From a virus (lineage: Duplodnaviria; Heunggongvirae; Uroviricota; Caudoviricetes): a stretch of DNA of 7,292 nucleotides. The stretch is from IMG/VR virus record IMGVR_UViG_2690315994_000013. One strand, written 5' to 3'. Of the stretch, positions 246-7,292 are shown piece by piece. A program made the position numbers and the translations under genes. The notes beneath the pieces were generated by a model. It was not told the DNA's origin and searched no databases. It worked only from the letters and a program-made list of their open reading frames with translations. How positions within the stretch are numbered: the first letter of the stretch is position 1; every line of letters starts with the position of its first letter.

Positions 246-1067
246 CTATCGCGTTACCCTCTTTAACTGCCGCTCCGCCCATGCCTCTTCAATGTCAAAC
301 CGAACCACCAACGTATCGTAAAAGCGTTTCACTGATTTTTTCCACGTATCAAGCGTGATAGCACTCGTCACTTTGCATATGGCATTAAATGCCTCCGTTG
401 ATGGTAGTCTTTCACAGCCACGACCACCACAACGCTGGCAGTCTCTGATAACAGGCATACCACGTTTTACCGACTCTTCACGATGAATGGCGACACCACG
501 CCCACGGCAATCCTTACAGGCGGTGGAAACCTCACCCTTTCCGCCACACTCCGGACAGGCAACTTTTACCACCTCCCTGACTTTTTTCCATTCTTCCCAG
601 TAAGACGGATACACACCTTTCGTACACTTTGCCCATACCGGCGGCTTACCATCCGGATACTGGATCTTGTTTGTAAAAACCTCGCTTTCAATAAATTTTT
701 TTCCGTGACAGCAGGAGCACTGTTTTTTGCTCGCCGCGCTGCGGGCATAATCTTCAAACGCATACGAAGCCATAATACGCATCACTGCCGGTTTTATTTC
801 TGCCGGGAGTTTTCTTAACGCCGCCACGCGATCACACCGACTGAGTGCATATTCTGTCAGCAATTCTGTTGCCCGCTCTCTGTCATTCATACTAATGCCC
901 ATTTTCCCAAGGAACGCAGAAAACCCCATCTCAGCCCGATTCTGTGTCATGCCCTGCGCGGCCATCACATCAGTGATACTCAGCGCATCTTTCGACGTTG
1001 AGGCCGATGCATCAGTCAGGCCGGGGGATTTTGGGGAGTAGTATTTCGGTAAATCTTCCAGTTTCAT
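246..1067 (-). CDS. Q: Late-gene antitermination protein Q (lambda-Q family, 273 aa, with an extra Cys-rich segment)
   Basis: N-terminal SPKSP...TDVMAAQGM and C-terminal ...YDTLVV...VTR match my recollection of lambda Q (SPKSP...TDVMAAMGM...YDALVV...AVTR). Multiple CxxC pairs suggest zinc binding. The ATG (1067..1065) overlaps the rusA stop (ATGA). Position is immediately upstream of the pR'-like promoter. Confidence 0.85.
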   Translation of the reverse strand: MKLEDLPKYYSPKSPGLTDASASTSKDALSITDVMAAQGMTQNRAEMGFSAFLGKMGISMNDRERATELLTEYALSRCDRVAALRKLPAEIKPAVMRIMASYAFEDYARSAASKKQCSCCHGKKFIESEVFTNKIQYPDGKPPVWAKCTKGVYPSYWEEWKKVREVVKVACPECGGKGEVSTACKDCRGRGVAIHREESVKRGMPVIRDCQRCGGRGCERLPSTEAFNAICKVTSAITLDTWKKSVKRFYDTLVVRFDIEEAWAERQLKRVTR

Positions 1068-3688: not shown

Positions 3689-4048
3689 TTACCCCTCATT
3701 GTTATTAATCTTTTGCAATAAATCTGCAAAACTCTTTAGCTGTTCCGGCGTAAACTGCGACTTAGCGAATCCCGCTACAAGCATTTTCTGTTGCTGAGAC
3801 AAACCGTTTACTGGAACTGAGTCATTCGCAACTGCCGCTAACTCCTGTAACCCTTCAATTTCTACACCTTTGGCCTTGAAGTAAGAATCAATCTTCTTAA
3901 CCCACTTCAGAGGTATTTTTTTGCTACCAGTTTCTAAACCGCTAAGAAACGCTGGCGTAGTGCCCAGTTCTTGAGACATAGTCAGAAGAGTACTGTCAGT
4001 ATCGATCCTCGCTTTTCTAACGGCCTTACCGAATTCAGTGAGTGCCAT
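3689..4048 (-). CDS. XRE/Cro-CI-type helix-turn-helix transcriptional regulator, 119 aa
   Basis: N-terminal segment (FGKAVRKARIDTDSTLLTMSQELGTTPAFLSGLETGSKKIP) fits the XRE HTH pattern. GAGGA SD 7 nt upstream of the ATG. First gene of a two-gene operon with the peptidase. Confidence 0.8.
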   Translation of the reverse strand: MALTEFGKAVRKARIDTDSTLLTMSQELGTTPAFLSGLETGSKKIPLKWVKKIDSYFKAKGVEIEGLQELAAVANDSVPVNGLSQQQKMLVAGFAKSQFTPEQLKSFADLLQKINNNEG

Positions 4049-4075: not shown

Positions 4076-4098
4076 CAGACTTGCCTAACGCAAGCCTG
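4076..4098 (-). promoter_or_regulatory. Imperfect inverted repeat between promoter and RBS of the HTH gene (candidate operator)
   Basis: cagActtgc-ctaac-gcaagCctg: 9-bp arms with one mismatch and a 5-bp spacer, placed where an autoregulatory operator would be expected. Confidence 0.3.
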
Positions 4099-4124
4099 AT
4101 GGGCGCTTAAATTCTAATTCCTAA

Positions 4125-4152
4125 AATTTACCATATACGAAAGCAAAGTAAA
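4125..4152 (-). promoter_or_regulatory. Putative sigma70 promoter of the HTH-peptidase operon
   Basis: Minus strand: TTTACT (-35-like), 16-nt spacer, TGgTAAATT (extended -10) in an AT-rich intergenic region about 80 nt upstream of the HTH start. Confidence 0.4.
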
Positions 4153-4190
4153 CCTTTTTAGTTAAAAAAATCTCCTTTAAGGGAATTTTT

Positions 4191-4292: not shown

Positions 4293-4448
4293 TTACTCCT
4301 CAGGTTCGTAAGCTGTGAAGACAGCGACCTCCGTCTGGCCGGTTCGGATTCGTACCTCGCAGAGGTCTTTCCTCGTTACCAGTGCCGTCACAATGACGGT
4401 TAAACAGATGACGATCAGGGCGATTAGCATCGCCTTTTGCTGCTTCAT
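4293..4448 (-). CDS. hokD: Hok/Gef-family membrane toxin, HokD (RelF)-like, 51 aa
   Basis: MKQQKAMLIALIVICLTVIVTALVTRKDLCEVRIRTGQTEVAVFTAYEPEE matches my recollection of E. coli K-12 HokD/RelF essentially residue for residue. AAGGAG SD upstream of ATG 4448. The ORF-track 70-aa version begins at an in-frame upstream ATG (4505) with no obvious SD. Confidence 0.85.
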   Translation of the reverse strand: MKQQKAMLIALIVICLTVIVTALVTRKDLCEVRIRTGQTEVAVFTAYEPEE

Positions 4449-5523: not shown

Positions 5524-5554
5524 TCACTCTCCTTTGATGCGAATGCCAGTGGTA
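5524..5554. repeat. 31-bp direct repeat, copy 1 (tcactctcctttgatgcgaatgccagTggta)
   Basis: Identical to 6018..6048 except one base (T/C). Covers the last codons (...GIRIKGE*) of the 165-aa gene and the RBS of the 87-aa gene. Confidence 0.85.
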
Positions 5555-6021
5555 CTCATTCTCCTGATTTCCCAGAGCACACGAGGAACACCACCGTTTC
5601 CGACCGGATCGCGCTTACTCCGCATGGCGACGCTTGATTCCGCCCAGCTTTTTCTTGGAGGAAGCTCTTTCACACGAACAAAACCAGCTGCGCGAAGAGA
5701 TGCTCCTGATTCATCTGCCTGGGTGTACGTAATACAACGTTGATAACCCATAGCCTTTGCTGCCCGCCAGACAGCACCATAAAGCGCGCTGTTAGCGTTG
5801 CGTTCTCCTGTGGTACATGTGCGATTTACTTCAAGCGTTAATCCATCGTCCAAATGTCGTGCAACAGGTCTACCGGCTGTCGCCACACCTATCAATTCTC
5901 CGGCATCATTTCTCAGACCAATGCTGAATTTATGCCCCACCGGGGGTTTATTGTGTCGGTGATGTCTGGATATAAACGCCTTCGCAACACGAAGAGTAAC
6001 CGGTGAAATCTGCACTCTCAC
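5524..6021 (-). CDS. Hypothetical protein, 165 aa (possibly GNAT-like fold; unverified)
   Basis: Continuous ORF bracketed by 31-bp direct repeats. Start GTG (6021 or 6015) preceded by AAGGAGAG. A central segment (GVATAGRP...NANSALYGAVWRAAKAMGY...ASLRAAGF) is loosely reminiscent of an acetyltransferase core; this is a weak impression only. Confidence 0.5.
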   Translation of the reverse strand: MRVQISPVTLRVAKAFISRHHRHNKPPVGHKFSIGLRNDAGELIGVATAGRPVARHLDDGLTLEVNRTCTTGERNANSALYGAVWRAAKAMGYQRCITYTQADESGASLRAAGFVRVKELPPRKSWAESSVAMRSKRDPVGNGGVPRVLWEIRRMSTTGIRIKGE

Positions 6022-6496: not shown

Positions 6497-6536
6497 AAGC
6501 CCTCCTGAAAATTACCTCATGACCAGAAATTAACAC

Positions 6537-7292
6537 TTACCCCCTGAAGCCCGGCGGAATTTCAGTGTCCGGTTCAGAAATGTGATTCACGCAACGCTGC
6601 GCAGGCGAACGCCCCAGGCGGATAACCAGTTCATCCCATTTTTCCCGGAGTTTTGCCGGACTCATGATGTTTTTTACCCAGAACGAATCCCGCTGGAGAC
6701 GCCCAAACATTTCACAAATTTGTCTGTGAGTTCTGCCATCCAGCATCCGCATTGTGCGAACGTCATTGGCCCATGCTGTCCAGTTGGGTTCTTTCGGTCT
6801 AGTGATCTCGCCATCATCGCTGGCCGCCTGCTCGTAAAGACTCACGATTCGTCCCCAGATCCACTGTGCGCACACCAAATCTTCCTGACTTCCCCACTGG
6901 CGTTTTTTCGCACTGAACACAACCGCGTCAGGGTGTCGGGTTAAAAAATTCTGTTCAGCCGTCTGCGGGTCCGGTTGCGAAGCGTCCGGACAAGAAGATC
7001 TTTTATCTGACGGATCAGGTTTTAATACTGACGGATCGGGGTCAATCATCGCCCCCCTAATCGGCAGTTTTTTATCAACGGTTGATCCATCAAAATTTGA
7101 CGGGTCAACCGTTGAGGGGTCAATATTTGACGGGTCAACTGTTAACGGGTCATTTTTTGCCGGGCTAATTTTTCTTTTCGGTTTATATGACTCACGCGCC
7201 GCCGCCGCAGCTGCTTCGAGTTTTTCCACATTAAGCCGATAGATATTGCTTACATTACGCCCACCGACCTTACGCTCTTCCTTCGTCAGCCA
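6537..7292 (-). CDS. Replication initiation protein, O-like with DnaT-like C-terminal domain (5' end lies beyond the window)
   Basis: The frame stays open to the window edge (the ORF-track M at 7229 is an internal GTG). The C-terminus (...VNHISEPDTEIPPGFRG) resembles the E. coli DnaT C-terminus as I recall it (...SEPDSQIPPGFRG). An iteron array lies inside the gene, encoding the TVDPS/NIDPS/TVDPS/NFDGS linker repeats. Confidence 0.7.
   Translation of the reverse strand, partial: WLTKEERKVGGRNVSNIYRLNVEKLEAAAAAARESYKPKRKISPAKNDPLTVDPSNIDPSTVDPSNFDGSTVDKKLPIRGAMIDPDPSVLKPDPSDKRSSCPDASQPDPQTAEQNFLTRHPDAVVFSAKKRQWGSQEDLVCAQWIWGRIVSLYEQAASDDGEITRPKEPNWTAWANDVRTMRMLDGRTHRQICEMFGRLQRDSFWVKNIMSPAKLREKWDELVIRLGRSPAQRCVNHISEPDTEIPPGFRG
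7082..7153. repeat. Iteron array (candidate phage replication origin inside the initiator gene)
   Basis: Five 12-bp palindromic boxes of form TTGAnnnnTCAA at exactly 15-bp spacing (7082, 7097, 7112, 7127, 7142): ttgatccatcaa, ttgacgggtcaa, ttgaggggtcaa, ttgacgggtcaa, ttaacgggtcat. Followed by an AT-rich stretch at 7154..7190. Confidence 0.65.

Follow-up and report, generated by a model that had tools for sequence, protein, structure and literature searches.

The stretch of DNA analysed here (the window) comprises 7,292 base pairs (bp) of the virus record IMGVR_UViG_2690315994_000013, and our subject is a periodic array of short palindromic boxes in it, a candidate replication origin that lies inside the gene for a phage replication initiator. 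All genes of the window are on the minus strand and belong to the early-right region of a lambdoid prophage, in the order Q antiterminator, RusA, DUF968, several small genes, a DUF977/Ren-like gene and then the open reading frame (ORF) of the initiator. The 3' three quarters of this ORF occupy 6537-7292 (minus strand) and leave the window at its right end. We found the complete gene in Escherichia coli 042 (WP_000095671.1), with one base differing from the window copy; it measures 963 nucleotides (nt) and encodes 320 amino acids (aa), the first 207 nt being located beyond the right end of the window. Nucleotide n of the initiator gene corresponds to window coordinate 7500-n. The protein matched PHROG 391, "replication initiation O-like" (2e-115), and begins with an HTH_36 winged helix (aa 25-71). 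The boxes fall at aa 111-143, in the linker between this winged helix and a lambda-O-like C-terminal domain (aa 182-300).

The box array

Four matches to the pattern TTGANNNNTCAA are present in the window (7082-7093, 7097-7108, 7112-7123 and 7127-7138). These four exact TTGAnnnnTCAA boxes keep a constant spacing of 15 bp; 0.14 are expected by chance, and none of 200 shuffled windows contained four boxes. Numbered in gene order and read on the coding strand, box 2 (7127-7138, TTGACCCGTCAA), box 3 (7112-7123, TTGACCCCTCAA), box 4 (7097-7108, TTGACCCGTCAA) and box 5 (7082-7093, TTGATGGATCAA) are exact matches, the last with a GATC at 7084 and an extra half-site next to it at 7075-7078. Box 1 (7142-7153, ATGACCCGTTAA) is degenerate, with two mismatches to TTGACCCGTCAA, and a remnant box (7157-7168, TTAGCCCGGCAA) carries three mismatches; both keep the 15-bp register. 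The first-pass annotation of this DNA had reported five palindromic 12-bp boxes at a 15-bp period. The spacing and four exact boxes hold, whereas the fifth box is degenerate and a sixth, remnant unit exists. Its statement that the boxes encode a five-residue, TVDPS-like repeat agrees with the translation of the minus-strand initiator ORF (LTVDP/SNIDP/STVDP/SNFDG/STVD).

Tandem Repeats Finder reported a period of 15 (5.2 copies) together with a stronger 30-bp super-period (score 101) and found no second array in the window comparable to this one. Likewise, the E. coli 042 copy of this prophage had no further box over 18.4 kb. With equal justification, the array can be described as TCAA/TTGA half-sites in alternation, spaced 7 and 8 bp apart. 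As single-stranded DNA it folds much better than shuffled versions (z -5.8), and the same region in eight relatives gave z values from -2.0 to -5.7. An overlapping coding sequence was not detected: the other two frames of the gene strand hit stop codons in the linker, and the plus strand over the linker holds no overlapping ORF of at least 40 aa. Rfam covariance models run against 6500-7292 returned two chance-level matches only, both below the gathering score.

Conservation of the array among homologous initiators

The comparison drew on three collections. Ten homologs came from phages (SfIV, phiNP, YeP1, phiP27, Klebsiella phages, Flotzy and Pseudomonas phi2 among them), 80 were E. coli prophage copies in IMG/VR, and another 80 homologs represented different species of Enterobacterales. 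The IMG/VR copies are identical in the N-terminal domain and are therefore informative for polymorphism only. A nucleotide search of the phage collection with 7000-7292 gave no match.

The strongest internal periodicity was 15 or 30 bp in 86 of 91 non-redundant homologous genes, and the periodic array always occupied nt about 290-350, immediately behind the part that encodes the winged-helix domain. Chaining the boxes per gene yielded three to nine of them, usually five, with one reading frame for 445 of the 446 units. Across genera from Providencia to Erwinia, the boxes keep their palindromic form and strict phasing. A search for homologous initiators without periodic boxes, which the first-pass annotation had named as a refuting observation, thus resulted in no refutation.

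Constraint on synonymous sites of the linker

In a codon alignment of 88 homologs, codon use was scored among the sequences sharing the majority amino acid. The fraction of the top codon was 0.82 in the linker, while the N-terminal and C-terminal domains reached 0.46 and 0.50, respectively (Mann-Whitney p about 1e-13). Pairwise synonymous difference at identical residues was 0.60 in the N-terminal domain, 0.19 in the linker and 0.58 in the C-terminal domain, while the amino-acid identity of the linker (0.52) was below that of the N-terminal domain (0.73). The six-fold-degenerate serines are encoded by TCA or TCT in 84% of cases in the linker versus 20% in the N-terminal domain. Within the boxes, the third codon positions of the arms are fixed (1.6-2.0 bits; the T of the codon before GAC and the A of TCA) and those of the box centres are free (0.35-0.57 bits). 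In one group of homologs (clade A, see below), the first codon varies between Val, Ile and Phe yet retains TT.

Polymorphism within E. coli was also recorded. Synonymous polymorphic sites numbered 1 in the linker, 13 in the N-terminal part and 31 in the C-terminal part, and nonsynonymous ones 11 in the linker and 19 in the C-terminal part. Two E. coli alleles have lost exactly one unit, either the 15-bp unit of box 1 (allele L043) or one 21-bp unit of the GATCCGTCAG repeats described below (allele L062).

Neither a protein repeat nor simple recency accounts for these codon patterns, which are the mark of a DNA site that is recognised by its sequence and superimposed on the coding frame. We are highly confident that the linker contains a selected cis-acting DNA element.

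Association of the boxes with the DNA-binding domain

The homologs form two N-terminal clades, set apart by one residue before the recognition helix. Clade A, with boxes of the form TTGA-SSSS-TCAA, includes the gene studied here, Kp4866-6 and homologs from Erwinia, Mixta, Edwardsiella and Morganella, and clade B, with boxes ATCTGA-YNCN-TCAAA, includes SfIV and most other homologs. The more distant homolog of Pseudomonas phage phi2 (L011, 36% identical) has unrelated repeats with a 17-bp period (GCAGGAAATGCACCC) at the same place in the linker (nt about 230-330); in phi2, the O-like initiator gene is followed by a P-like loader gene.

A natural domain swap was observed in mEp460 and HannyBb, whose C-terminal half has 86% nucleotide identity to the gene of the window and whose N-terminal domain is unrelated, with the homology break at window position about 7004. 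Both phages carry other repeats in the linker. That of mEp460 (L174, nt about 330-480) contains GGTCAAAATG repeats at 23-bp spacing and, in a roughly 70% AT tract that differs from the AT-rich DNA of the window, ACAGAGAWTA repeats; it is probably another undescribed origin type. At least four types of C-terminal half are found behind the N-terminal domain of the gene studied here, and a GC dyad beside the junction is common to different modules.

Because of the clade co-variation and the mEp460 swap, we consider the DNA-binding domain, the repeats and the AT-rich DNA to be one travelling specificity module. Joint travel of these three parts is classical for lambdoid O genes. We infer that the boxes are bound by the N-terminal domain of the initiator itself.

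Extent and anatomy of the constrained element

The segment with synonymous-site constraint in the codon alignment spans 6969-7202 (initiator aa about 100-177), and we propose this segment as the extent of the putative origin. The interval of 7074-7190 that had been put forward previously includes the boxes, but the conserved element, at about 6969-7202, is larger.

In gene orientation, the box array is followed by a spacer (7046-7074) with a T6/A6 tract at 7068-7073 and then a C6/G6 run at 7052-7057; relatives have an A5-7...TTTT tract at the equivalent place. Beyond the spacer are two GATCCGTCAG repeats (7007-7037), which read CTGACGGATC on the plus strand at 7007-7016 and 7028-7037 and fall outside the interval proposed previously. 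They are 21 bp apart here, in A+T-rich DNA, and 24 bp apart in most relatives, where their codons GAT, CCG, TCA and GTA are fixed at 0.92-1.00. The element ends with a GC-rich dyad, GTCCGG-N11-CCGGAC (6969-6991), which was identified by its fold and adjoins the mosaic junction; constrained codons extend up to aa 177.

The AT content reaches about 60-67% over approximately 30 bp on each side of the array, and only the downstream side (about 6995-7040) is conserved. The first-pass annotation had pointed to an AT-rich stretch beside the boxes. This stretch (7150-7180) is present, with 63-67% AT, and encodes a basic segment (KPKRKISPAKN), but it is not conserved; the conserved AT-rich segment is on the other side of the array. 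The duplex stability of 7150-7180 is equalled at about 30 other places in the window, and in clade-A relatives the stretch is neither conserved nor AT-rich. We rejected it as a conserved unwinding element, given its modest AT content and its restriction to one lineage; in the direction of the gene it precedes the boxes. In lambda, in mEp460 and in the family of the present gene, the AT-rich tracts all sit just before the part that encodes the C-terminal domain, and for this reason we regard about 6995-7040 as the best candidate for a strand-opening site. The two GATCCGTCAG repeats within it are the best candidate for the unwinding and/or Dam/SeqA-sensitive part of the putative origin.

GATC sites are dense in this area, with four in 6997-7087 versus one per 331 bp in the window, and 10.3 per kb in the linker versus 3.7 per kb in the rest of the gene. 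Two of the linker sites are kept in at least 90% of the homologs. Genes for adenine methyltransferases (Dam, D12 class or MT-A70) are found directly downstream of the initiator gene in about one third of 86 loci, including L003, L004, L006, L007 and many of L092-L171. The conserved GATC sites and the downstream methylase genes hint at a link between phage methylation and control of the putative origin.

A perfect match to the DnaA-box consensus TTTTCCACA at 7222-7230 (plus strand), in the part encoding the N-terminal domain, was discarded as a candidate: it is not conserved, and about 0.45 such matches are expected by chance in the window. Sequences resembling the IHF consensus and the oriC 13-mers in the window carry one to two mismatches.

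A candidate vegetative origin and its alternatives

We propose that the region is the vegetative replication origin of the lambdoid prophage, placed in the linker-coding part of its initiator gene, and we assign this reading a probability of about 80%. It is favored because the lambda iterons occupy the same place in O, the array is conserved, selection acts at the DNA level and the boxes co-vary with the DNA-binding domain. The iterons of lambda are annotated inside O at the place equivalent to the boxes (PMC7466680). The idea of a lambda-like, iteron-type ori inside the initiator gene, already present in the first-pass annotation, is strongly supported by the last three of these observations, all of them comparative.

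In gene orientation, the proposed origin would consist of five to six T-TGA-N4-TCA-A boxes, an A/T tract, two GATCCGTCAG repeats and the GC-rich dyad. Dimers of the winged-helix domain may bind the boxes and assemble a nucleoprotein complex resembling the O-some. Adjacent boxes are about 1.5 helical turns apart, so that alternate boxes would be presented on the same face of the helix. The strands would then open at the AT-rich, GATC-bearing segment at about 6995-7040, possibly under the control of Dam and SeqA, and the lambda-O-like domain together with a DnaT-like tail (see below) would recruit the helicase machinery of the host with no need for a phage P protein.

Several points weigh against this proposal. 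The AT-rich segments are short and, with 60-67% AT, much weaker than the roughly 40-bp tract of lambda. Half-sites that are 7-8 bp apart constitute an unusual geometry for a helix-turn-helix dimer, and the clade co-variation rests on few independent events. Recombination could account for some of the DNA conservation, since the sequences are related and a mosaic junction lies here. Of 33 distinct E. coli alleles, 7 have an A-to-C change at 7120 (Asp to Ala) that disrupts the TTGA arm of box 3, and prophage copies with this variant may in some cases have a weakened origin. A broken box arm in a common allele and the frameshifted integrase of the E. coli 042 prophage suggest that some copies may be decaying. 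In the searchable literature, which leaves older subscription papers outside, there are no binding, unwinding or autonomous replication experiments on these initiators.

Four other explanations were weighed. The DNA repeat might be a by-product of a flexible xxDPS protein linker that arose by duplication or slippage and has no function at the DNA level. The single reading frame of 445 of the 446 units, the richness of the repeat in D, P and S and a copy number that varies by slippage would all fit such an origin of the repeat. However, the synonymous sites of the linker are about three times more conserved than those of the flanking domains while the protein is less conserved, its serines show the bias to TCA/TCT (84% versus 20% in the N-terminal domain), the third positions are fixed in the arms and free in the centres, and in clade A the residue changes while the TT of the arm stays. 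We see hardly any room for this explanation, and we read the synonymous-site data as ruling out a repeat that matters for the protein alone. The linker could instead be conserved as a hot spot of module exchange, homogenised by homologous recombination rather than by selection for protein binding. The gene is indeed mosaic, with the C-terminal half 86% identical to that of mEp460/HannyBb up to the break near 7004, one N-terminal domain that is combined with four or more C-terminal types and the GC dyad shared across modules; at this dyad, recombinational homogenisation is plausible. As the explanation for the linker we judge it very unlikely: homogenisation would conserve all positions, whereas the centres vary and the arms are fixed, swaps leave the array together with its N-terminal domain and a new domain comes with a new array, and the array remains palindromic and strictly phased from Providencia to Erwinia.

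Operator-like palindromes, conserved GATC pairs and methylase genes downstream in about one third of the loci would also suit a different regulatory role, in which the boxes bind a protein for autoregulation or a roadblock of the early operon, for exclusion or incompatibility, or for a Dam/SeqA switch, and the origin is situated elsewhere. We consider this very improbable, given that the position matches that of the experimentally defined iterons in lambda O (PMC7466680), that no second array or box was found in the window or in 18 kb of prophage, and that the array is inherited modularly with the DNA-binding domain of the initiator. Finally, the array may act mainly as single-stranded hairpins, similar to a primosome assembly site and recognised by PriA, with the DnaT-like tail plugging the initiator into PriA/PriB restart; the wrapping of duplex iterons in an O-some would then be secondary. 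Its folding (z -5.8, and -2.0 to -5.7 in eight relatives) and the tail common to DnaT point in this direction, but hairpin potential is automatic in tandem palindromes and has been noted for the lambda iterons as well (PMC7466680). The hairpins also differ among relatives, with the arm sequence conserved and no compensatory change, and unwinding would still have to come first. A main function as hairpins appears very improbable to us, slightly more so than recombination or another regulatory role.

The C-terminal domain and its DnaT-like tail

The lambda-O-type C-terminal domain is encoded at 6600-6956 (minus strand). In BLASTP, aa 182-300 aligned with residues 171-277 of lambda O (39% identity over 119 aa, E 5e-26), and no similarity to lambda O was found in the N-terminal part. 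In agreement with this, lambda O matched Phage_rep_O (PF04492) with 5.7e-36, and the initiator and three relatives had no match to this model and an HTH_36 domain instead.

The last 20 residues (aa 301-320, QRCVNHISEPDTEIPPGFRG; 6540-6599, minus strand) contain the pattern VNxxSEPDxxIPPGFRG and are identical to residues 160-179 of E. coli DnaT (primosomal protein i) at 14 of 20 positions (70%). This similarity is confined to the tail: the pairwise alignment with DnaT spans 20 residues, the match to the NCBIfam DnaT model covers positions 159-179 of 179, and matches in the PDB were to the tail only. The N-terminal domain, the PriB-binding acidic linker and the three-helix-bundle C-terminal domain of DnaT had no match in the initiator. 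The "DnaT-like C-terminus" noted in the first-pass annotation is therefore correct for the last 20 residues, while the domain itself is lambda-O-like. "Primosomal protein I" annotations of relatives rest on the tail.

A GFR(G/S/T) tail is present in 52 of 89 homologs, borne either by a lambda-O-like domain or by a DnaD-like domain unrelated to it. None of these 52 initiators had a gene resembling lambda P or DnaC directly downstream, versus 13 of the 37 that end differently. In the lambda-O-like class, seven homologs combine a W..L tail with a P gene and eight a GFR tail with the lack of one. Other types of C-terminal module are found together with lambda-P-like or DnaC-like genes, which is what one would expect of a modular initiator. 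No helicase-loader gene follows the initiator in the window, where the next gene is DUF977/Ren-like, or in E. coli 042, and the loader-less class includes the viable phages SfIV, phiNP and mEp460. With no P- or DnaC-like gene here or after the 52 GFR-tailed homologs, the suggestion that helicase recruitment differs from that by lambda O and P is supported.

We tentatively suggest, while giving it clearly less than even odds, that the tail of 17-20 residues (SEPDxxIPxGFRG) might be a portable docking motif for a host replication protein (DnaB-DnaC or PriA/PriB), which would spare the phage a loader of its own. This idea is based on the occurrence of the tail on two unrelated domains, on its replacing the W..L tail that goes with a P gene, and on the lack of a loader gene beside it in all 52 cases. 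For DnaT itself, removal of residues 154-179 led to only a modest drop in the cooperativity of single-stranded DNA binding (PMC4132743). In the accessible part of a structural paper from 2026, the way in which DnaT recruits DnaB/DnaC is stated to be unknown and the tail is not discussed (PMC13377028). For DnaT-like phage proteins, the searchable literature contained no description of the function of the tail.

Relation to known origins and initiators

As in lambda ori/O, the putative origin lies mid-gene, in the linker between a DNA-binding N-terminal and a recruitment C-terminal domain, and is built of several repeats with dyad symmetry, beyond which, in the direction of the gene, AT-rich DNA is found (PMC7466680). 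The C-terminal domains are homologous, and a Ren-like gene is located downstream in both cases. The number of repeats varies, with four in lambda, six in the Stx phages 933W and P27 and three to nine in the homologs of the window. Unlike in lambda, the N-terminal domain is HTH_36 rather than Phage_rep_O, boxes of 12-14 bp abut at a strict 15-bp spacing (the 18-bp iterons of lambda are 20-24 bp apart), the AT-rich part is short with conserved GATC repeats, and there is no P gene. Lambda O ends in ...TDWIYGVDL, whereas the initiator of the window ends in the DnaT-like tail, outside of which it is unlike DnaT throughout. The right arm of lambda ori, GTCAGAGAATTCTGGCGAATCC (L173 555-590), resembles a GTCAGAATCTGGCGGGGATCC segment of the homologs, but the alignment is ambiguous and we do not claim homology; the same holds for its similarity to the GTCAGAATCTGG...GATCC segment of the homologs.

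Replication modules close to that of the window, all uncharacterised, occur in SfIV/SfII, phiNP, YeP1, phiP27, Klebsiella prophages and mEp460/HannyBb. SfIV, SfII, phiNP, YeP1 and phiP27 have the same N-terminal domain (46-56% identity) and a 15-bp array at the same place, and SfIV, mEp460 and HannyBb have the C-terminal domain and tail in common with the initiator of the window. Most relatives differ in their clade B boxes (ATCTGA-N4-TCAAA), phiP27 in having another C-terminal domain together with DnaC-like and DnaB-like genes, and mEp460 in its other N-terminal domain and 23-bp repeats.

Iteron-containing plasmid and P1 origins have arrays of initiator-binding repeats beside AT-rich DNA and in this resemble the proposed origin of the window. 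In P1 oriR and in oriC, clusters of GATC couple initiation to Dam methylation and SeqA. The plasmid and P1 origins are intergenic, with direct-repeat iterons bound by Rep monomers, whereas the repeats of the window are dyad-symmetric and coding. Loader-less, "initiator-only" phage modules have already been catalogued.

The genome paper of SfIV describes the module but no origin (PMC3851460), and the searchable literature, including that on SfIV, SfV and phiP27, contains no description of the boxes or the origin of these homologs. On the basis of these comparisons, the arrangement is very probably a new example of the classical lambda-type origin in an initiator gene, unusual in having no loader gene and a DnaT-like tail.

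Other features of the prophage

In E. coli 042, the initiator gene is preceded by cro-like and YdaT genes, and the gene beyond it is Ren-like. The integrase of this prophage (L001 15571-16621) is annotated as frameshifted, and the copy may thus be cryptic. The minimum of duplex stability in the window was located at 4098-4179 (30-bp dG of -30.6 kcal/mol versus a mean of -42.4), an intergenic gap between ORFs ending at 4048 and starting at 4293; the corresponding region of E. coli 042 contains the hokD toxin gene and hypothetical genes. Further, the ORF at 5524-6021 (minus strand) had a weak match to the Mom family (8e-5, under the Pfam cutoff), and the Q antiterminator at 246-1067 (minus strand) matched a DnaJ-type zinc finger.

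Implications

The same DNA, at 80-100% identity, is carried by 2187 of 5426 complete E. coli genomes (about 40%), and our analysis locates the likely origin of this module and its real extent. Viable Shigella, Citrobacter, Yersinia and Klebsiella phages have the module as well, and the searchable literature describes no origin for them. With its high protein divergence and frozen synonymous sites, the linker offers a natural case of a DNA element written into coding sequence, and annotation pipelines as well as codon-based selection scans should expect such a pattern. Practical uses could include origin-based cloning or incompatibility tools and markers of prophage induction. If the docking role of the tail is true, it would define a P-independent route of origin firing and point to the contact that DnaT uses in passing the helicase on to the restart primosome. 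The link between the tail and the loader-less gene order is of more specialist interest, and it provides a testable handle on how DnaT-type tails engage host helicase loading.

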